Positions 3,234-51,539 of a stretch of DNA of 64,000 nt are shown piece after piece. A program made the translations under genes and the position numbers. Under the pieces are notes generated by a model. That model was not told the origin of the DNA, did no database searches, and worked only from the letters and a program-made list of their open reading frames with translations. Position 1 is the stretch's first letter. Every line of letters starts with the position of its first letter. The DNA is from Gammaproteobacteria bacterium (lineage in GTDB: Bacteria; Pseudomonadota; Gammaproteobacteria; JABABF01; JAHRAO01). The stretch is taken from the NCBI GenBank assembly GCA_020027215.1, contig JAHRAO010000031.1, positions 8,603 to 72,602 of the forward strand, given 5' to 3'.

Positions 3234-6200
3234 GTGAATATATTTAATGTCTTTTCTATCAGAAAATTTATTTCTTTAACGTCTTCTATTGGCTTGGCCA
3301 TTGCTGCCATGCTTTTTTTGTTATCTCTATCCAGTGCGGTGAGCGCACAGGACGACGATGATGATGAAGGAGCGGAAGTTGAGGAAGTCTTGGTAACGGG
3401 GTCAAGAATTCCACAAAAATCCAATTTGATTGCCCCCAGCCCTATAACACAGGTCAATGCGGATGAATTCCTTTACACTGGAGTTACCGAAGTAGAAGAT
3501 TTGCTTAATGACTTGCCCATAACCCAAGGTGATAACGATAATACCGCTAATAATGGAGCTGTAGGTATCTCATCTGTGGATTTGCGTGCTTTAGGGCGCG
3601 ATAGAACTTTGACTCTTCTCAACGGGAGGAGAATCACCCGCGGGTCTTCTAAGCAAGCGGGTGGCGGTGCCGATCTGAATACCATTCCGCATTTTCTGAT
3701 CAAACGCGTTGAATTGCTAACGGGCGGCGCCTCAGCAACTTATGGTTCGGATGCTCTTGCCGGCGTGGTCAATTTTATTTTAGATGAAGAATTTAAAGGG
3801 TTTAAGGTTGACATTCAGCGCAGTTTCTATAACCATGAAAATACGGATATATTACACCCGCAATTGAATGCGCGCAATTTTGCCATTCCCGAAAGCACGG
3901 TCAATGATGGCTATACGAGTGCTTTATCTTTGGCTTTCGGCGTAAAAACAGATAAAGGACACATGGCACTCTACGGCATGTATCGTGATGTGGATCCCAT
4001 CTACCACGCGGATCGCGACCATTCTGCCTGTGCATTGAGCAGTAATAATTCATCCTGTGGGGGTTCATCTACTATTCCGCAAACCAGAATCACTGATTTT
4101 GGATCATTGGAGGCTGCGATTCGTTTCCCAGGGACGATCACTCGAGTCGCGCAGATAGCCAACTACGATTCCGCTGTACATGGTGCTAGTTCAACACTGA
4201 ACGCAACATATGTTACAAGTGCTAATCTTTCTGTGCTGAATGAACCAGGTGCAGTTGCTGCGGGGACGCCAGTTGTGGCTGGCTTTGACTGGTATGTGCC
4301 CGCACCCGCGGCAGGAGCATCATCCAACAACCAATTTGATAGACGTGCAGGTACTGTTTTGTTTAACTTTGCCCCGCGCAATATTTTTCAACGCCCAGGA
4401 AAAAGATCCATTTTAGGTGGTTATGGGCACTACGATTTCAACGACCATGTCACTGGTTACGCTGAGGTTAATTATATGAATCTGCGTTCATTGTCCCAAA
4501 TTGCGCCTTCGGGTAATTTTTTTGAAACCGATAATCTTTTCTGTGGCAATCCTTTGCTGTCTGAACAGCAATTCCAAACAATTTGTGGGCGATATGGTTT
4601 AACAAAAAATGATTTTTTCCAGAGTCTCCAAGGAAGAGAAGTCACGGCGCTATTTGTAGAGCGCACATCTTCTCCAACTATGAATCCTCGTCCTAACATA
4701 ACAACCCAAGTGACCGTTACGGGTAGGCCGACGATTAATATTGGTAGAAGAAACTTAGAGGGCGGTGAGCGGCAAGAAGATCTGTCGTACGCATCTTTAC
4801 GCGCCGTTTTTGGCGTGCGTGGCGATTTTGGCACAGCGTGGTCTTACGATGCTTTTGCTAATTTTTCCCGTACCGATTTAACGAATATTTACCTGAACGA
4901 TATATCAATTACGCGTATTAATCGGTCTTTGGATGTCATCAATACCACCCGCGTTGCTACTGCAACAGATGGATCCACTAGTGTGCAGACATTTATAGCT
5001 TGTCGTTCGGCAACCTCTGTTGCTGGCGCACCACCAGTTGATGCCAATTGTGTTCCATGGAATGTTTTTACCAATAATGGCAATAGGCTTGCAGCGACTT
5101 CGACGGGAGGCGTGACCCAAGCGGCGATTGACTATCTCATCTTGCCATTATACGAAAAAGGCGAGACGACTCTATCACAAATAACGGCACATATAGTCGG
5201 TGATTTGGGTGAGTACGGAATTGCGCTGCCATGGGCGGATACGGGGATCAGTTTTTCCGTGGGTTATGAAAGAGTTGCGCAGAGCCTAGAACATCTTCCA
5301 GATTCAAACTATATCTCTGGTGATGGATCAGGTCAAGGTGGGCCAACTGTTCCAGTCAGCGGTTCACTTTTTTCCGACGAAATGTTTTTTGAAGCACATA
5401 TCCCTATCATTGAAAATGCATCTTTTGCCGATGCACTCAATTTAGACATAGGTTATCGGACCGGTTCTTATTCGACAGACCAAGATGTCAATAGTAGTAA
5501 ATTGGCACTATCGTGGGTGATCAGGGAGAATTACAAAGTGAGAGCCAGTGTGCAGCAGGCTATTCGTCACGCACACGCGAGAGAACTTTTTGCCCCTCAG
5601 GGAATCCAATTGATTAATGCGACTGATCCGTGTGCCGGTTCGAATCCAGGTAGGACTGAGGCAGAATGTATGAAAACTGGCTTAATGCCTGGCCAATATG
5701 GTCTTGTGGCGGCGAGTCCGGCGGGGCAGTATAATCGCCTTAATGGCGGGAATCCAAACCTAAGGCCTGAAACATCTGATACATTCTCTTATGGGTTTGT
5801 GCTGACCCCCTTAGATGGTTTATCTGTATCATTGGATTATTATGACATTAATATAGAAGAGACGATAGGTCGTGTTGGTTTTTCTTCAATCATAAGTCAA
5901 TGTATAGAGAACGATCGCTTCTGTAATCTAATTCAGCGAGGGTCTGGAGGCACGCTATGGCTTGGTAATGATCAGGTTGTTGATACTAACCAAAATGTGG
6001 GAACATTTTCAACTTCTGGTTTTGACCTTAATTTTGAGTACCTTTTCGGTATTGGTAGTGCAGGTAAAATGCGGGCGAGTCTAGTTGCCAACTTTCTACA
6101 ATCTTATGAAACTATGTTCCTCGGTGATCTCACCGAGTGTGTTGGTGCTTTCAGTACATCCTGTGGTGTTCCGAACCCCGAAATGGCATACAATGCCCGC

Positions 6201-29474: not shown

Positions 29475-30608
29475 TTGGATAATAAAAAGATTATTGGCGA
29501 ATTTTGGACCGCCAAACAAAGACAATCAAACAAGATACATGAAATATCGTATAGGGCTTGTTTTAAACCAAACTTAGTGAGATATTTTGTCAATAAATTT
29601 TCTCATGCGGGAGATTATGTATACGATCCTTTTGGTGGCAGAGGGACAACTGCTATTGAATGTGCCTTGATGGGTAGATTAGTTGTTTCAAACGATATAA
29701 ACCCGCTCAGCAAGGTATTTATAGAACCCAGATTGAACCCTCCTTTTTTATGTGATATTGAAAAAAGGATAAATGAAATATTCTCTGAAACTAAAATTTC
29801 CCATAAAGACAATGATCTTTATATGTTTTACCACCAAGATACCTACCAAGAAATACTATCTATCAAAAATTACTTGAATCGTAAAAGACAACTGGGAGAA
29901 GAAGATTATATGGATAAGTGGATTAGGATGGTTGCTACTAATAGATTAACTGGGCATTCAAGGGGTTTTTTTAGTGTTTATACTTTGCCACCCAATCAGG
30001 CGACAAGTAAAGAAAGGCAAATCAAGATCAATCAGGCTAGGAATCAGATACCTGAGTATAGAAACACAAAAAACATTATCATGAAAAAATCAAAATCATT
30101 ATTATCTGAGATTGATCGTCACAGAAAAATTTTGCAAGAAATCAATAAGAAGTCAATAATATTAACTCATTTTGCCCATGAAACAAAAGAAATTCCAGAT
30201 AATTTTATATCATTGGTTGTCACATCACCGCCATTTATGGACATTGTAGATTACTCACAAGATAATTGGTTAAGGTGTTGGTTTAACGATATAGATTTAG
30301 AAGAAATGAAAGCGACGATAACCAGTAGTAAGTCATTGCAGGATTGGGAAAATAAGATGCGGGACGTTTTGATTGAATTGAAAAGGGTGTTAAAAAATAA
30401 ATCTAAAATTATCTTTGAGGTTGGAGAAATAAAAAAAGGGAAAATAAAACTAGATGAAGTTGTTGTGAAAATATCTGAACAAGCGGGACTGCAATATCAT
30501 TCCACTCTCATCAATACTCAGAATTTTACCAAAACCGCTAATATATGGGGAATTAAAAACAATGCAGAAGGGACTAACTCTAATAGAATTGTGATTTTAA
30601 GAAAATGA
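29475..30608 (+). CDS. orphan DNA methyltransferase (N4-C or N6-A; motif I before motif IV)
   Basis: TTG start. FWTAKQR...CFKPNLVRYFV..FSHAGDYVYDPFGGRGTTAIECALMGR (AdoMet motif I) is followed ~190 aa later by LVVTSPPFMD (catalytic motif IV). The gene is visibly more AT-rich than its flanks. No adjacent endonuclease ORF is present. Confidence 0.8.
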   Translation: MDNKKIIGEFWTAKQRQSNKIHEISYRACFKPNLVRYFVNKFSHAGDYVYDPFGGRGTTAIECALMGRLVVSNDINPLSKVFIEPRLNPPFLCDIEKRINEIFSETKISHKDNDLYMFYHQDTYQEILSIKNYLNRKRQLGEEDYMDKWIRMVATNRLTGHSRGFFSVYTLPPNQATSKERQIKINQARNQIPEYRNTKNIIMKKSKSLLSEIDRHRKILQEINKKSIILTHFAHETKEIPDNFISLVVTSPPFMDIVDYSQDNWLRCWFNDIDLEEMKATITSSKSLQDWENKMRDVLIELKRVLKNKSKIIFEVGEIKKGKIKLDEVVVKISEQAGLQYHSTLINTQNFTKTANIWGIKNNAEGTNSNRIVILRK

Positions 30609-30815: not shown

Positions 30816-30892
30816 GCCGGAATAGCTCAATTTGGCAGAGCAACGCACTTGTAATGCGTAGGTTGTCAGTTCAAGTCTGACTTCCGGCACCA
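30816..30892 (+). tRNA. tRNA-Thr (anticodon UGU), CCA encoded
   Basis: GCCGGAATAGCTCAATTTGGCAGAGCAACGCACTTGTAATGCGTAGGTTGTCAGTTCAAGTCTGACTTCCGGCACCA. The cloverleaf folds by eye. The anticodon loop is CTTGTAA. Confidence 0.93.
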
Positions 30893-36343: not shown

Positions 36344-36882
36344 ATTCGTTTTGCTTCTATGAATAGGGCTTTGGATAATTTGTTGTAAAAGTCATTATAT
36401 AGTTCTTCATCGTTGAGGACTCCAGCCCGCGATAAACTGCCGTCTAGGTTGCGAATCACGCGCTGGAATGTCGTACGCACTACAAATCCCGATTTATCGC
36501 GTTTAGAAGGGCGCGATACTATACTAATACGAATATACTGCTTGTGCTCAAATGACGCAACATGACTTGAAGAGGTTAAGCTACTTAAAAATCCTAAAAA
36601 CATTTTCCCCGCAACATCCTTGGCATTGATCGCACTGGCAATTTTTGATGCCGAAATTAAACCGAGTTTTTTATGGGCGGCATCAATCGTATAGCCCGTA
36701 TCTTGTAACAAAGCGACCATTGCCGCCAACATTTGCCCTTCATCTTTAGCGGAGTAAAACCGAGATTGGAGTTGCCTATCGCCGAGCGTAGTTGGGGTCA
36801 GCGCTAATGGATTTGCCGGAAGGCACGCCGTTAAGAAAAATGCAATAAAAACAACAGGTGCTGTTTGGTAGAGCAGTTCCAT
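36340..36882 (-). CDS. lipoprotein (180 aa), function unknown
   Basis: Lipobox FLTAC. The start shares 1 nt with the upstream stop (TAATG). Confidence 0.75.
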   Translation of the reverse strand: MELLYQTAPVVFIAFFLTACLPANPLALTPTTLGDRQLQSRFYSAKDEGQMLAAMVALLQDTGYTIDAAHKKLGLISASKIASAINAKDVAGKMFLGFLSSLTSSSHVASFEHKQYIRISIVSRPSKRDKSGFVVRTTFQRVIRNLDGSLSRAGVLNDEELYNDFYNKLSKALFIEAKRI

Positions 36883-37277
36883 TAAAACTGCGAAGAACGG
36901 TATGCAAAATCGCGCACTTTATTTTCTTCGTCAAACTTGACAATAATCGTCAAGGAGCGTTGCGTTCGCGAGGCAACTCGGTTTGAATGGGTACCACCTG
37001 CAATAACGGCAAAAATCCATGTATTTTTCTTTGAGATTATTTCCTCAGTGGCAACGCGATCGTATATCCAGACCTCGCCCTGTTCATCGGTGGACACAAT
37101 ATTGGGTGTCCCTAATACCTCTGCAACGGCAACGGCATTCATCCCGATACGAATTTCTTTTTGTACCGTGCCGACGGTCAGTTTTTTAGCCGATGTGTCG
37201 CCCACTTCAGCCGTCTGCTCACTGACTGCGACACAGCCTGCAAAGAGTATGGCGATAAAAAAAATAGAGAACTTCAT
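36882..37277 (-). CDS. BamE/SmpA-OmlA-like small lipoprotein
   Basis: The internal ATG at 37277 gives MKFSIFFIAILFAGC (lipobox). LTVGTVQKEIRIGMNAVAVAEVLGTPN...EVWIYD resembles the SmpA_OmlA fold motif. The longer tracked ORF (start 37325) would overlap the endonuclease gene. Confidence 0.65.
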   Translation of the reverse strand: MKFSIFFIAILFAGCVAVSEQTAEVGDTSAKKLTVGTVQKEIRIGMNAVAVAEVLGTPNIVSTDEQGEVWIYDRVATEEIISKKNTWIFAVIAGGTHSNRVASRTQRSLTIIVKFDEENKVRDFAYRSSQF

Positions 37278-37292
37278 AAAAATTTTTGTTAA

Positions 37293-37300
37293 TAAATTTT
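37293..37300. repeat. 8-bp direct repeat TAAATTTT (left copy), putative target-site duplication
   Basis: It directly abuts the left inverted repeat. An identical octamer directly abuts the right inverted repeat at 38786-38793. Confidence 0.7.
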
Positions 37301-37323
37301 GGACATTATATCTAATGTTAGCC
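37301..37323. repeat. left terminal inverted repeat GGACATTATATCTAATGTTAGCC
   Basis: The reverse complement of 38763-38785 is GGGAATTATATCTAATGTTAGCC. This repeat overlaps the last sense codon and the stop of the endonuclease gene. Confidence 0.9.
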
Positions 37324-37998
37324 ATTAATAAAACCCTTTATTTTGTCTTTTATTTCAGAAATTTTTAGTAATTCTTTGATGAAAAACAATATATTCTTTT
37401 GTCCGTCTTGCTTGCGTAAATATATAATTTCATCATAATCTATTTCTAGCAATTCACAGAATTGTCTACCAGTTAGTATTTCGCCAATAGGTATTTTCTT
37501 TTTGAATCCGTGAAAAATTGCTTCTCGGTCGTTTTGATTAAAGCAACAAATATGACTAGAAACAGTACTTTGCAATCTGTGTCCATTGCGCTCTGCAAAA
37601 CTATGTACTGTTGCCCTCTCCGCAGACGCCTTTTTGGTATCGAAGACATGTCCGTCTTTTAATTCTACGATATAACAGTTTTGTTTGCCGTGCCTTCGCT
37701 TAAATATAATAAAATCAGGTTCGGCAATTCCACTATGGTCAAAAAGTTCACATTTCTTTACTTGTTTTTTTGGTGCAACAGATACCCCTTCTGGTATTAA
37801 TTCTTTTTCTAAAAAGTCGTCTAGGTTCTCTATTTTATATACCCTATTCATTATCATACGCTCTAATTCAAAGCCAGCAGATATGACTGTCGATTGTATT
37901 CTGCTAATAAGTTGCCCTAGCGATTTATTGCCAAATACCCTTTCATATCCGCCAGAGGATTCCTTAACCCTGCTGTTTTCAATGAGTGCCATACACAA
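37318..37998 (-). CDS. type II restriction endonuclease (PD-(D/E)xK)
   Basis: 226-aa ORF overlapping the 3' end of the methyltransferase gene by 20 nt. The candidate catalytic motif is AEPDFIIF...YIVELKDG. Specificity is unknown. Confidence 0.7.
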
Positions 37999-38740
37999 TA
38001 TCGCAACCGAGAAAATTACGCCCTACAGAGAGCGCGGAATCCATAACGGAGAAAGAGCCAGCAGCGGGGTCAAGTATCACATCGCCTTCATTGCTTGTTG
38101 CAGATATAAGCTGCGCCTGTAATTTGTGCGGTTTTCTATGAGTATGCCCGTTTTTTTCTATCTTTTCAAAATATACATCTGGTATATTGTGTATCGTCCA
38201 TACTCCCTTTGCTTTTCTTGGTTGCTTTTGTAATATGAGTATGTGTTCACTGGTTCTGCGAGAGCGATAACCCATGCCTATTCTACCCTTATCCCATACA
38301 ATCATGTCTACTATGTCAAAACTGGTTCTATCAAGCCAATGCTTTACTCCCTGACATAAATGAAATTTATCTACCCACAAAAACAAATGTCCAGAGGGTA
38401 AAAGCACTTCATGAATGTGGACTATAAAATCCATTATCGTCTTTTCGTCCATTTGAGGAAGATTGCTTCGATTTTTCCCTCTACTTTTTCCTTCGTTGCC
38501 GTATTTCAAATGGTCTAGTACCCCTCTGTATTGAGGATCGAAAAAACATACGGGGTACGCGTCCGACTGCAGATTTACTAAAAGCTTTCTACCGTCCATC
38601 TTTAGTTTTATGTTCAATGATAATCCTTGCGGTATATCAATAGTAGGTTGTTGTATTTTTCTCTCCATAGAGAATACTGACTTAACTACATTGTCAAATG
38701 TATCTGGTATCTGTTCAATTATTTTAGCGTGTCGTGCCAC
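37979..38740 (-). CDS. beta-class N6-adenine/N4-cytosine DNA methyltransferase (N6_N4_Mtase type)
   Basis: GTG start with a GAGG SD. Motif IV is the variant FFDPQY. The C-terminal segment [48 protein letters not shown] carries the AdoMet motif I region. Confidence 0.85.
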
Positions 38741-38762
38741 TGATTAACCTCATTATTGCTTT

Positions 38763-38785
38763 GGCTAACATTAGATATAATTCCC
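38763..38785. repeat. right terminal inverted repeat GGCTAACATTAGATATAATTCCC
   Basis: It lies 23-45 nt upstream of the methyltransferase GTG. It is complementary to 37301-37323. Confidence 0.9.
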
Positions 38786-38793
38786 TAAATTTT
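38786..38793. repeat. 8-bp direct repeat TAAATTTT (right copy), putative target-site duplication
   Basis: Identical to 37293-37300 and directly adjacent to the right inverted repeat. Confidence 0.7.
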
Positions 38794-38801
38794 TAAGAGG
38801 C

Positions 38802-38810
38802 ATTATAACA
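38802..38810 (-). promoter_or_regulatory. extended -10 element TGTTATAAT just outside the cassette, reading into M-R and the lipoprotein genes
   Basis: The minus strand reads GCGAATGTGTTATAATGCC. No good -35 element is present (TTGCGC at best). Confidence 0.35.
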
Positions 38811-38817
38811 CATTCGC

Positions 38818-39591
38818 TTATTGGCGCAATTTTTTGCTGGTTCGGAGTAAATGGAGAGCATAAATATAGGTGATGCAAATGAATACTCCTATCATGGTTA
38901 ATGCCCACAACACATTAATATCCGAAATACCCAGAGTGCCGTAACGAAAAGTATTGACCATATACAAAATGGGATTGAGCAGTGATATTTTTTGCCACAA
39001 TTCTGGCAATAGGTTGATAGAGTAAAAAATCCCCCCCAAGTAAATCAATGGGGTAATCACAAAAGTAGGAATAACGGTTACATCATCAAAAGTGCGCGCA
39101 TATACGGCATTAATGAAGCCTAGTAAAGCAAAGAGCGTTGCAGTCAATAATAAAACCACAATCATTATCCCCCAGTATTGAATTGATAGATCGGTAAAAA
39201 AAAGTGCGATCACCGCAGCGACCCCTCCCACCAATATACTTCGCGTCACTCCCCCTAAGACATAACCGTGCAGAATGATATAGTTGGGGGTGGGAGAGAT
39301 TAATAATTCCTCCAAGCTGCGCTGAAATTTAGCTCCGAAAAAGGATGACACGACATTGGCATAAGCACTGTTAATCACTGCCAGCATCACCAAGCCTGGG
39401 GCGACAAATTGCGTGTAGTTATAGCCTTCCATAGGTCCGATGCGCGTGCCGATAATCTCGCCAAAAATGATGAAATAGAGCACAATCGTGATCGCAGGGG
39501 GGACTATGGTTTGCACCCAAATGCGCATAAAACGGCGCACTTCTTTAATATAAATGGTGTGGAACGCAATCCACTTTTGGTAAGGCGTCAT
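38818..39591 (-). CDS. ABC-2 type transporter permease (YadH-like)
   Basis: 257 aa with six hydrophobic segments. It overlaps the upstream ATPase gene by 4 nt. Confidence 0.85.
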   Translation of the reverse strand: MTPYQKWIAFHTIYIKEVRRFMRIWVQTIVPPAITIVLYFIIFGEIIGTRIGPMEGYNYTQFVAPGLVMLAVINSAYANVVSSFFGAKFQRSLEELLISPTPNYIILHGYVLGGVTRSILVGGVAAVIALFFTDLSIQYWGIMIVVLLLTATLFALLGFINAVYARTFDDVTVIPTFVITPLIYLGGIFYSINLLPELWQKISLLNPILYMVNTFRYGTLGISDINVLWALTMIGVFICITYIYALHLLRTSKKLRQ

Positions 39592-46556: not shown

Positions 46557-48157
46557 ATGCACCTCAGAAAAGAAATATCTCCAATGCCGTTTGGCTGATG
46601 GTGTTGGGGGTGTTGGTCGTGGCATTGCTGACGGTAACTCGTTTGCGTTTGCCGTCTACTGCATTGGATATGATCCTCATCGATAGCGACAATATTACTC
46701 AAGATGTGCGCGCACAGCGTTTTGATGCACTCATTGCCGAGCATGCCAGTGCGCTTAAAAATTGGGCGGATTACAGCGAATCTTTAGCTGTGCGCGATCG
46801 TGCGGTGCAAATATCATCTCTGTGGATGGATCGTTGCGAGGTGACCCAAGGTGATTTTTATCGTTTTGTCAGCTGGGTTGCGCGCCAACCACCGCCCATC
46901 ATGGCACATCTACCGGAGCAACAACCGCGCCATTGGCAGTATCGCAGTAGTTCACATCGTCATCGCATTTCTGGGAGGCTGAGTGCCCCCGCTAATGGCA
47001 TTACTTATTACGATGCGCGCGGTTATTGTCATTTTGCGGGCGGGCGATTACCGACTGCGGAAGAATGGATTGTGGCGGCGTCTCCAAATGGACAATTATA
47101 TCCATGGGGTGATGAATTTAATAGCGCTGCGTGGCCTTACTTGAAACCTCGCTTAAATGCTGCACAAAAATGCCAAACCCACGCGTATGCTCGCTCGCGC
47201 TGGGGAGTGAGTGATATGGCGAATAATGTTGCCGAATGGAGTGAAGGATGGCTCACGGCACAGAATAAACAACCACTAGTGCATGGTGGCGATGGTTATC
47301 GCCAACCGGCAGCGGTGCATGCTTTGAGTATGCTCTACCAATCCCCATCGCCGACATCGCGATCTCCTTATATAGGTTTTCGCTGTGTGTATGACTCCCC
47401 ACCGTCCCCTGCTCCGTGGAGAACAATTCCGCAAACCCAAAGCATTCTCTCTGGAAATTATCAAATTGGGGTGCCCGAGCAATCCATCATGGCGAGTGTG
47501 GTGGCAAATTTGCCGCACTCACAATTGGCACAAGTAAGCCAATTAGTGGAGAGCCAACAGGAAAAAGAGGGCACGAGCGATCGACTCTATTTTAATGTTT
47601 CAGCATGCGAAATTACGCGCCGCCACTACAAATGGTTTCTCCGCGATCCTTTAGTGCATCTTAAATTATACGCCGACAAAACCGAACCACAAGGATGGGA
47701 TTACCATCCGCATGACTGGCAGCGACAATTAACCCACCCCGATTTGCCCGTGACAGGGGTAGATTGGTGGTCGGCGCGCGCTTTTGCGCGCTGGATCGGC
47801 GGGCGATTGCCCTCGGCGGTGGAGTGGAGTGTCATTTACTTGCGCCATCAACTGACCTATCCGTGGGGAAACAAATACGATCCGGCACTGGCGGTCACCG
47901 GCGATAGGAAAGATGCCCTCCCACTACATTGCGGCGATATGGAAAACGATCGGATTGATGGAGTCAAAGATTTAGGAGGCAATGTCTCTGAATGGACAAG
48001 TAGTATTACTCCGCATCATGGCGGTTATGCGATGGTGATTAAAGGGGGGAGCTATTTGCTTCCTGGCAAAGACACCGCGCGCATTGATCATAATCGCTTA
48101 GCCCCCCCATCGTACCGCTCCCCGGGCGTCGGTTTTCGTGTTGTGATTGACCCGTAG
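46553..48157 (+). CDS. membrane-anchored protein with two FGE-sulfatase/SUMF1-family domains (component D, 534 aa)
   Basis: ATGA overlap with component C; the tracked ORF start at 46457 was rejected. Signal anchor VWLMVLGVLVVALLTV. Domain 1: GGRLPTAEEWIVAAS..YPWGDEF..MANNVAEWSEGW..YIGFRCVYD. Domain 2: GGRLPSAVEWSVIY..YPWGNKYD..LGGNVSEWTSS..GVGFRVVID. Confidence 0.8.
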   Translation: MNAPQKRNISNAVWLMVLGVLVVALLTVTRLRLPSTALDMILIDSDNITQDVRAQRFDALIAEHASALKNWADYSESLAVRDRAVQISSLWMDRCEVTQGDFYRFVSWVARQPPPIMAHLPEQQPRHWQYRSSSHRHRISGRLSAPANGITYYDARGYCHFAGGRLPTAEEWIVAASPNGQLYPWGDEFNSAAWPYLKPRLNAAQKCQTHAYARSRWGVSDMANNVAEWSEGWLTAQNKQPLVHGGDGYRQPAAVHALSMLYQSPSPTSRSPYIGFRCVYDSPPSPAPWRTIPQTQSILSGNYQIGVPEQSIMASVVANLPHSQLAQVSQLVESQQEKEGTSDRLYFNVSACEITRRHYKWFLRDPLVHLKLYADKTEPQGWDYHPHDWQRQLTHPDLPVTGVDWWSARAFARWIGGRLPSAVEWSVIYLRHQLTYPWGNKYDPALAVTGDRKDALPLHCGDMENDRIDGVKDLGGNVSEWTSSITPHHGGYAMVIKGGSYLLPGKDTARIDHNRLAPPSYRSPGVGFRVVIDP

Positions 48158-48202
48158 GAACATATCGCACAATGGAGATGCTGCGATTGTTTGCGCTTCT
48201 TC

Positions 48203-50631: not shown

Positions 50632-51539
50632 AAAGATAAAAGCGCAGTGGCTCCCTGCGCCAGTAGATCGTGTGCTGCTATTTCTGCCGCTTGTTTTGAG
50701 GATGGCGTGCGCGCCCGGGCGCGGTATAGACAGCCGTCTGTATTGCCCACCGCCGCATGCAGAATAATATCATCTGCTTCAATGTACGCATAAGCCGCAA
50801 TCGCCGAATAACAATTCCCGCCTAAAAGGTGCACACAGCGCCTTTCTGCGTCTGCACAACGCACACTAATATCATTGTTGAGTTCACCGAAGAGTTGTAA
50901 CCATTGTGGGTCATCACTGCGCCCCTGTACTGCGATAATGCCTTGCCCGGCGGCGGGCGGAAAAATGAGCGGGTCTAGCCAATGGGCATTGTCCGGCATA
51001 ATTTGCAGTCGTAACAACCCTGCCGCTGCTAAAATAAGCGCATCGCATTCTCCATTGTGCCATTTCTTTAAACGGGTATGAATATTGCCGCGTAGTGGGG
51101 TAGAGTACACTTGGTGACACAGGGCACTCACTAATGCTTGTCGGCGCGGGCTTGCTGTGCCGATGACTGTCCCCGGCGGTAAGCTGTTCAGCGTATTGCC
51201 GGCATGCGTGAGTAAGATATCCCGTACATCGTGGCGTGTCATGAGTGCCGCTAAACAAAGCCCAGCGGGCAAATCGTAGGGCATATCTTTGAGCGAATGC
51301 ACCGCACAATCGGCTTCGTCTTTGAGGAGCGCTTCTTCCAAAGCACTCACAAATAAACCCTTGCCCCCCAATTCGGCTAATGACCCCGATACACTATCAC
51401 CGCGCGTGGTGATGGGCACAATTTCCGTGCGCAATTGCGGTTGGATGTGGTGTAATTGCTTGACAACAAATTGTGTTTGCCACAAAGCAAGTGGACTACG
51501 ACGGGTGGCGAGCCGTAATACGGATGAGCGAGAGGGCAT
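50628..51539 (-). CDS. hemC: porphobilinogen deaminase (hydroxymethylbilane synthase)
   Basis: LRLATRRSPLALWQT..V...L......IVPITTRGD...GGKGLFV..LE.ALL...D.AVHSLKD.P....RGN..TRL. Confidence 0.92.
   Translation of the reverse strand: MPSRSSVLRLATRRSPLALWQTQFVVKQLHHIQPQLRTEIVPITTRGDSVSGSLAELGGKGLFVSALEEALLKDEADCAVHSLKDMPYDLPAGLCLAALMTRHDVRDILLTHAGNTLNSLPPGTVIGTASPRRQALVSALCHQVYSTPLRGNIHTRLKKWHNGECDALILAAAGLLRLQIMPDNAHWLDPLIFPPAAGQGIIAVQGRSDDPQWLQLFGELNNDISVRCADAERRCVHLLGGNCYSAIAAYAYIEADDIILHAAVGNTDGCLYRARARTPSSKQAAEIAAHDLLAQGATALLSL

Follow-up and report, generated by a model that had tools for sequence, protein, structure and literature searches.

A transposase-less restriction–modification cassette with IS1595-family-like ends in a gammaproteobacterial genome

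We analyzed a 64,000-nucleotide (64-kb) stretch of DNA from a genome deposited as Gammaproteobacteria bacterium (assembly GCA_020027215.1, contig JAHRAO010000031.1, positions 8,603 to 72,602 of the forward strand; hereafter, the window), which carries a restriction–modification (R-M) gene pair between short inverted repeats. The 1485-bp segment delimited by these repeats (37301–38785) is very probably a nonautonomous, transposase-less derivative, of the mobile insertion cassette (MIC) type, of an IS1595-family “transporter IS” (tIS), that is, of an insertion sequence (IS) with the R-M genes as passengers. The original prediction, which recognized the footprint of a DDE-type transposon and likened the segment to MICs, is supported by relatives in which the same R-M family is the cargo of an intact IS1595-family element with homologous ends and 8-bp target-site duplications. 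From these features, we infer that the segment was inserted by DDE transposition.

The R-M cassette and its terminal repeats

The two 23-bp terminal repeats, one on the side of the restriction endonuclease gene (R) and the other on the side of the methyltransferase gene (M) (Table 1), are inverted copies of each other at 21 of 23 positions, with the inner 19 positions being identical, as had been read from the sequence originally. Exactly 2 copies of the 23-mer are present in the window, the second being inverted with 2 mismatches, and a second copy appeared in none of 100 dinucleotide-preserving shuffles. Among inverted repeats with arms within 6 kb of each other, this is the strongest in the whole window. 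The octamer TAAATTTT directly abuts the outer end of both repeats; it is common in the window (9 copies versus 7.5 expected), so it carries weight only because it abuts both repeat ends exactly. Between the repeats lie just 2 overlapping minus-strand genes, M and R, and the segment is richer in AT than its surroundings (GC content of 37.0% versus 45.5% for the window), both in agreement with the earlier description. Relative to the mean of the window's 53 other open reading frames (ORFs), the GC content is lower by approximately 3.3 standard deviations (SD) for R and by approximately 1.8 SD for M. A chance coincidence of inverted and direct repeats could appeal to the abundance of the octamer and to the recurrence by chance of the 19-nt repeat core in unrelated genomes (see below), but it is effectively refuted by the shuffles, by the rank of the repeat within the window, and by the fact that the repeats exactly bracket a low-GC R-M pair and are homologous to transposon ends elsewhere. 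A dif/Xer-like site was also considered and ruled out on account of the inverted orientation of the copies and the duplication around them.

M matches PF01555 (1e-16) and the PADLOC model MTase_II PDLC03271 (6e-83), and its motifs IV (DPQY) and I (DPAAGS) are both invariant among relatives. In an alignment with 6 relatives (57% to 81% identity), the GTG start of the window gene pairs with the ATG of M on contig L068, one of the intact elements described below. The longest ORF of R begins at a TTG at 37998; the ATG at 37992 was chosen, in agreement with the homologues. R matches the PADLOC model REase_II PDLC03487 over its full length (1e-49), with residues E93-P94-D95, E112, and K114 being invariant (motif EPD...ExK), and belongs to a family of at least 470 homologues of about 222 to 226 amino acids. 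Sequence searches of Pfam, NCBIfam, and PDB returned no match to R and no named, characterized homologue, and R had no match among phages. On plasmids, the search found only homologues of 42% to 43% identity; these lie next to a gene for a VapC toxin on Campylobacter conjugative plasmids and are not accompanied by a transposase. P0001, the representative of the protein cluster that includes the window R, is 177 amino acids long and starts at an internal Met; the homologues indicate the full 224 residues. By their separate, adjacent genes and intact catalytic motifs, M and R qualify as a predicted Type II R-M system, presumably expressed as one operon. A lead toward HhaII/GANTC specificity, taken from gene sizes, was dropped; M resembles CcrM weakly, over the C-terminal 50 residues.

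Intact IS1595-family elements carrying the same R-M family

DNA around the R homologues was reached by exact-protein look-up. One homologue, P0052, is present in 3 metagenome contigs (L068, L069, and L070) from 2 samples; this R and its M are 55.6% and 56.6% identical, respectively, to the window proteins at the amino acid level and hit the same PADLOC models. In all 3 contigs, a transposase gene (310 to 311 codons), M, and R are co-oriented in this order, with M-R directly behind the transposase gene. The transposase is a member of the IS1595 family (PF12762, 4.7e-44; PF12760, 2.9e-12; NF033547, 9e-57), with every profile score exceeding the curated cut-off by a wide margin. Over a length of 2510 bp, the transposase-M-R unit extends from GGGAATTA(T/C)ATACAATCTTAGCC at the left end to GGCTAAGATCGTATATAGTTCCC at the right end. 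Outside these ends stands a perfect 8-bp duplication, which reads ATAATTTA in L069/L070 and TTAATTTG in L068. The L068 and L069 elements are identical at 2502 of 2510 positions and have unrelated flanks (157 identities over 316 positions); hence, this is the same element at 2 sites, which must have moved recently. The original prediction had proposed a search for an autonomous IS with the ends of the cassette; the ends of the L068–L070 units are nearly identical to those in the window.

The M-side repeat of the window matches the left inverted repeat (IRL) of L068 (GGGAATTATATACAATCTTAGCC) at 20 of 23 positions and that of L069 at 19 of 23, and the homology between the window and L068 continues inward past the IRL for approximately 20 nt. 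The R-side repeat matches the right inverted repeat (IRR) of L068/L069 at 16 of 23 positions. Between the IRL and M, the L068 and L069 elements contain approximately 95 nt plus the 930-nt transposase gene. The 3 target sites, AAAATTTA in the window (in element orientation), ATAATTTA, and TTAATTTG, all contain AATTT, which points to a common target preference; such a preference would account for the palindromic AAATTT core of the window octamer.

The position of the R stop codon is a further trait shared with the relatives. In the window, the last codon and the stop codon (37318–37320) lie inside the R-side repeat, and in every repeat-bearing lineage R ends inside the right-hand repeat with ...GGC TAA (or GGT TAG, GAC TAA). 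Gly is the C-terminal residue of 45 of 119 R homologues (38%), compared with 5.8% Gly overall, which suggests that many members of the family end in the GGN-stop of such a repeat. Because the reading frame of R stops within the transposon end and the matching Gly is C-terminal in 38% of the homologues, one may speculate that the R-M system and the IS1595-family transposon form a single co-evolved selfish unit across phyla, in which post-segregational killing by the R-M system would stabilize insertions and the transposon would provide mobility; the window form would then still be mobilizable, with its repeats doubling as an outward promoter and an RNA-duplex regulator. We regard this extended scenario as unlikely.

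An insertion driven by the R-M gene products themselves, a possibility left open for comparable units (PMC2853133), would be in line with the absence of a transposase from the cassette. Against it stand the dedicated DDE transposase with matching ends in the relatives and the 8-bp duplications and AT-rich targets reported for IS1595-family elements, and we consider it very improbable.

Three further observations concern the transposases of these contigs. The L068 and L069/L070 reading frames differ by a frameshift near residue 290 (position ~2166 in L069/L070, where tblastn alignments split), and one of the copies may encode an altered C-terminus. Immediately past the right-hand duplication of the R-M-carrying element in L068, a second, different IS1595-family IS (positions 3698–4727; transposase 48% identical) begins with GGGAATTATATATGAAACTAAC; no opposite end was found for it. 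Among plasmid-borne transposases, those most closely related to the one of L068 (H12 and H13) had no readable ends.

Loss of the transposase gene

Seven contigs from one sample (L059–L065) represent one locus, between a gene for a solute-binding protein and argS, with R being 58% to 59% identical to the window protein. In DNA without called genes upstream of M (~1371–1670), they retain a remnant, the C-terminal half, of an IS1595-family transposase (residues 166–292, 46% identity to L068, E = 1e-27), a predicted pseudogene representing a stage of decay. The R-side repeat is kept (GGTTAGAATTAGATATAATTCCT, 19 of 23 positions matching the window repeat, with one gap), and no left repeat remains; since this lineage carries the transposase remnant, the missing repeat reads as decay. 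In L055, where R is 72% identical, the R-side repeat is recognizable (16/23), and the AT-rich insert opens with GGTAATATAT after a GC-rich flank; apart from this GC/AT boundary sequence, the left end gave no convincing alignment.

In the window, the transposase gene is cleanly gone, the M-side repeat being followed by a 22-nt leader and then by the start of M. The leader resembles both the sequence after the IRL and the transposase-M spacer of L068 (shared TAAyGAG), and for this reason the deletion junction cannot be placed more precisely. A putative decay series is visible across these loci, from the intact transposase-M-R unit through a decayed transposase to the transposase-less cassette with both ends.

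Taken as a transposition product, the cassette would have arisen as follows. An IS1595-type DDE transposase would recognize the 23-bp ends (GGnnATTATAT...TTAGCC), an 8-bp staggered cut at the AATTT-containing, AT-rich intergenic site AAAATTTA would give rise to the 8-bp duplication, and the unit would land between the ABC permease and lipoprotein genes. The transposase gene was presumably lost by a deletion between the subterminal leader and the ribosome-binding site of M, either before arrival, in which case the cassette would be a true MIC moved in trans, or afterward, in place. The original prediction favored delivery in trans by an IS transposase encoded elsewhere or since lost; the transposon origin is supported by the intact relatives, whereas delivery in trans accounts for the data no better than would the arrival of a complete element that then lost its transposase gene on site, and we put the two at roughly even chances. 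If a complete transposase-M-R transporter IS arrived by its own transposase and never moved in trans, the later deletion would resemble the decay seen beside M-R in L059–L065, and the likeness of the leader to L068 sequence both after the IRL and before M (TAAyGAG) would permit a deletion by short homology. Such a history is a serious contender, if somewhat short of an even bet: the window contains no transposase remnant, both repeats have been retained, as a mobilizable MIC requires, and the assembly-graph branch described below hints at a recent or polymorphic insertion. We lean slightly toward movement in trans, since both ends are cleanly retained and the insertion may be polymorphic for presence or absence.

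Searches for further copies, an empty site, and a transposase

Exact scans for the 19-nt core covered 185,579 species-representative genomes, 241 million metagenome records, and IMG/VR. The hits were single and unpaired, mostly in unrelated ORFs, far from any R-M homologue, and were judged to be due to chance. An exact 19-mer is too strict a probe; the true relatives differ at 3 to 4 positions and were found only by the protein route. The exact core also occurs after GGG in the bamA-accD intergenic region of Campylobacter concisus, just upstream of accD, where it is −10-like (L029 1036–1054 and ~30 other loci); this promoter-like match was likewise taken as chance. A BLAST search of the repeat region against plasmids returned only chance hits (E about 1 to 3), of which one was inspected and proved unrelated.

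Several results weigh against a transposon origin of the cassette. The 185,579 genomes, the 241 million metagenome records, and IMG/VR yielded no second copy of the repeat, and no empty site was seen; further copies and an unoccupied site were among the things that the original prediction had proposed to look for. For the flanking permease, the best match in the protein database is only 65% identical, and nothing was found when the exact sequences of the lipoprotein (131 and 147 amino acids), a 180-amino-acid neighbor, and R were looked up; no sister genome carrying an unoccupied site turned up because the databases contain no organism closely related to the host. A tblastn search of the 64-kb window with 2 IS1595 transposases detected no IS1595 transposase (best E = 0.1). 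Close R-M relatives on L056, L057, and L058 (R identity of 62% to 66%) lack recognizable repeats. Finally, owing to the palindromic AAATTT core of the octamer, 6 of the 8 “duplicated” bases can also be read as an extension of the inverted repeat, which a repeat finder stretches to 31 nt at 90% through this core; read directly, the octamers match at 8 of 8 positions, compared with 6 of 8 when read as inverted. None of the observations that the original prediction had named as contrary to it was made, namely related strains with the same R-M genes but without the repeats, a widespread intergenic repeat unrelated to the cassette, or an empty site failing to reconstruct with a single octamer; some relatives do have the R-M genes and lack one of the repeats, but one such lineage is L059–L065, with its transposase remnant.

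The Logan assembly of run SRR27685851 holds the same organism. In this assembly, the contig with the permease gene (L001) breaks off precisely at 38786, the octamer's last base, and the contig that carries M (L002) starts 30 nt before this junction. In a k = 31 assembly graph, such a break is the signature of a branch where the repeat begins, as would result if alleles with and without the insertion were mixed; a variant located 30 nt upstream could look alike, so that the break is only a hint of an empty allele. At its 3′ end, L002 breaks off within R (window position 37647) without apparent cause, and the assembly is fragmented, which weakens arguments from contig ends.

Insertion site and possible promoters

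The features of the cassette and of its insertion site are listed in Table 1. The predicted empty site is AAAATTTTTGTTAATAAATTTTTAAGAGGCATTATAACAC, with a single TAAATTTT between the flanks ...TTTTTGTTAA and TAAGAGGCAT....

Table 1. Features of the R-M cassette and its surroundings (positions within the window).
Feature	Position	Strand	Description
Small lipoprotein gene	36882–37277	−	Signal MKFSIFFIAILFAGC; weak BamE-like match; ATG 15 nt beyond the duplication
Target-site duplication, R-side copy	37293–37300	.	TAAATTTT, or AAAATTTA in element orientation; identical to 38786–38793
Terminal inverted repeat, R side	37301–37323	−	Corresponds to the IRR of the IS1595-family parent; outer-to-inner GGACATTATATCTAATGTTAGCC; includes the final codon of R and its stop
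Type II restriction endonuclease gene (R), predicted	37318–37992	−	224 amino acids from the ATG at 37992; PD-(D/E)XK-type motif EPD...ELK
Beta-class N6/N4 DNA methyltransferase gene (M), predicted	37979–38740	−	253 amino acids; GTG start; GAGG Shine-Dalgarno sequence
Leader, M-side repeat to M start	38741–38762	−	22 nt; homologous to the subterminal sequence after the IRL of the intact element; expected location of the parent's transposase gene
Terminal inverted repeat, M side	38763–38785	−	Corresponds to the IRL; outer-to-inner GGGAATTATATCTAATGTTAGCC; forward strand GGCTAACATTAGATATAATTCCC
Target-site duplication, M-side copy	38786–38793	.	TAAATTTT
Host extended −10-like box	38802–38810	−	TGTTATAAT; just after the stop codon of the ABC permease gene; read from the sequence
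ABC-2 transporter permease gene	38818–39591	−	Stop codon 24 nt from the duplication

The extended −10-like box TGTTATAAT was not listed by the consensus promoter scan, as it has no fitting −35 element. The insertion would now part this box from the lipoprotein gene and set it upstream of M, and M-R could be transcribed either from the host box outside the element or from a promoter within the repeat. The R-side repeat contains a perfect TATAAT directed toward the lipoprotein gene, 29 nt before its ATG (again a reading of the sequence), and the same box lies 24 nt before argS in L059.

Such signals raise the question of whether the inverted repeat is a regulatory or RNA-structural part of the R-M operon (a 5′-3′ duplex, an outward or antisense promoter, or an operator), with the octamers being a coincidence. 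Pairing of the 2 copies in the M-R mRNA had been suggested originally as an alternative or additional role; it is physically possible if both copies are transcribed (−35.1 kcal/mol versus −12.3 ± 3.2 kcal/mol for shuffles), follows from any transcribed pair of terminal repeats, and showed no sign of function. A regulatory role could also draw on the TATAAT box, which faces the next co-oriented host gene both in the window and in L059, and on the conservation of the R-side copy in relatives without the M-side copy. It is nonetheless improbable as the origin of the repeats, because these repeats also delimit an intact IS1595-family transposon, which has perfect 8-bp duplications at 2 further sites, the duplication in the window is 8/8 at the exact position, and in the intact element the M-side copy lies upstream of the transposase gene rather than of M.

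Other observations in the window

A second, unrelated Type II-like DNA methyltransferase gene (29475–30608, plus strand) is the only other strongly low-GC ORF of the window (32.5% GC). Its product matches PF01555 and the PADLOC model MTase_II PDLC03325 (9e-134, profile positions 52–423). The gene lies approximately 200 nt upstream of a tRNA-Thr gene (30816–30892) and has no adjacent endonuclease gene, and no inverted or direct repeats were found flanking it. The second-best inverted repeat of the window (48150–48178 and 51049–51077; 29 nt, 79%) brackets 4 minus-strand ORFs. Two tetramers are much rarer in the window than expected under a maximal-order Markov model, GGCC (32 versus 186) and TCGA (51 versus 186), as if the genome had long been exposed to restriction of the HaeIII and TaqI types; a connection with the cassette is not evident.

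Comparison with known mobile elements

Transposon-like R-M units are already known. Furuta, Abe, and Kobayashi (NAR 38:2428, 2010; PMC2853133) described a Type IIP unit of Xanthomonas oryzae with 65-bp inverted repeats and an R-M unit of Neisseria gonorrhoeae with 26-bp inverted repeats, both with 8-bp duplications and with an empty site in a sister genome; according to the authors, the action of a transposase in trans could not be excluded (PMC2853133). The window element resembles these units in having imperfect inverted repeats around the R-M genes, an 8-bp direct duplication, repeats without further copies (in the genome for the earlier units, in the 64-kb window here), and no functional transposase inside. 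It differs from them in that no empty site is at hand from a sister genome and in that its repeats are shorter (23 bp) and overlap the stop codon of R. Furthermore, the earlier units have no identified parent transposon family, whereas the window element has an intact IS1595-family relative with homologous ends and cargo; what is added here is a transposase-less R-M cassette linked, through homology, to its putative intact IS1595-family parent. How transposon-like R-M units move was left open in 2010, and our comparison suggests that at least this R-M family rides IS1595-family transposons. In other respects, the element is an ordinary example of defense genes as transposon cargo.

IS1595-family elements such as tISCpe8, MTnSag1/ISSag10, and ISApl4 have terminal repeats of 25 or 14 bp starting with GG and insert into AT-rich targets, and members of the family may carry passenger genes beside the transposase (PMC5704250, PMC12561309), in which case they are referred to as tIS (PMC7986276). 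Examples with 8-bp duplications are MTnSag1/ISSag10, with lnu as cargo, and tISCpe8 (PMC5704250), and the IS1016-group element ISApl4 has 8-bp AT-rich duplications and the repeat GGGGCTGTACTAGA (PMC12561309). The L068–L070 elements are tIS-type elements of this family with R-M cargo. The window element shares with the family an 8-bp AT-rich duplication and repeats homologous to those of a transposase-encoding element, as befits an IS1595 derivative; unlike a tIS or an autonomous IS, it has no gene for a DDE transposase with an N-terminal zinc ribbon and can be a derivative only, and, in place of a resistance gene, it carries a complete R-M system. The window ends read GGACATTAT and GGGAATTAT, and the L068 transposase contains ...DEFATRHN, that is, E followed by R at +4. 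These traits would suit the ISNwi1 subgroup, which in the ISfinder family table has ends of the form “ggnnatTAT,” 8-bp duplications, and the motif DDEK+ER4. The IS1016 subgroup presumably has ends of the form GGGgctg, in agreement with the ISApl4 repeat.

MICs are an accepted category of mobile elements (PMC3129680). In MIC231 of Bacillus cereus and the qnrS2 mic of Aeromonas plasmids, IS-type repeats surround passenger genes, no transposase is encoded, and the target is duplicated (PMC3129680, PMC4444841); such cassettes are thought to be moved in trans by the transposase of the cognate IS (PMC3129680, PMC4444841). The window element has the structure that defines an MIC, with IS-type repeats, passenger genes, no transposase, and a target duplication. 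For MIC231, mobilization in trans has reportedly been demonstrated. For annotation, an R-M pair between GGnnATTATAT...TTAGCC repeats with an 8-bp AT-rich duplication can be read as a candidate IS1595-type MIC. MIC231 and the qnrS2 mic derive from the IS231/IS4 family, whereas the window element would derive from the IS1595 family.

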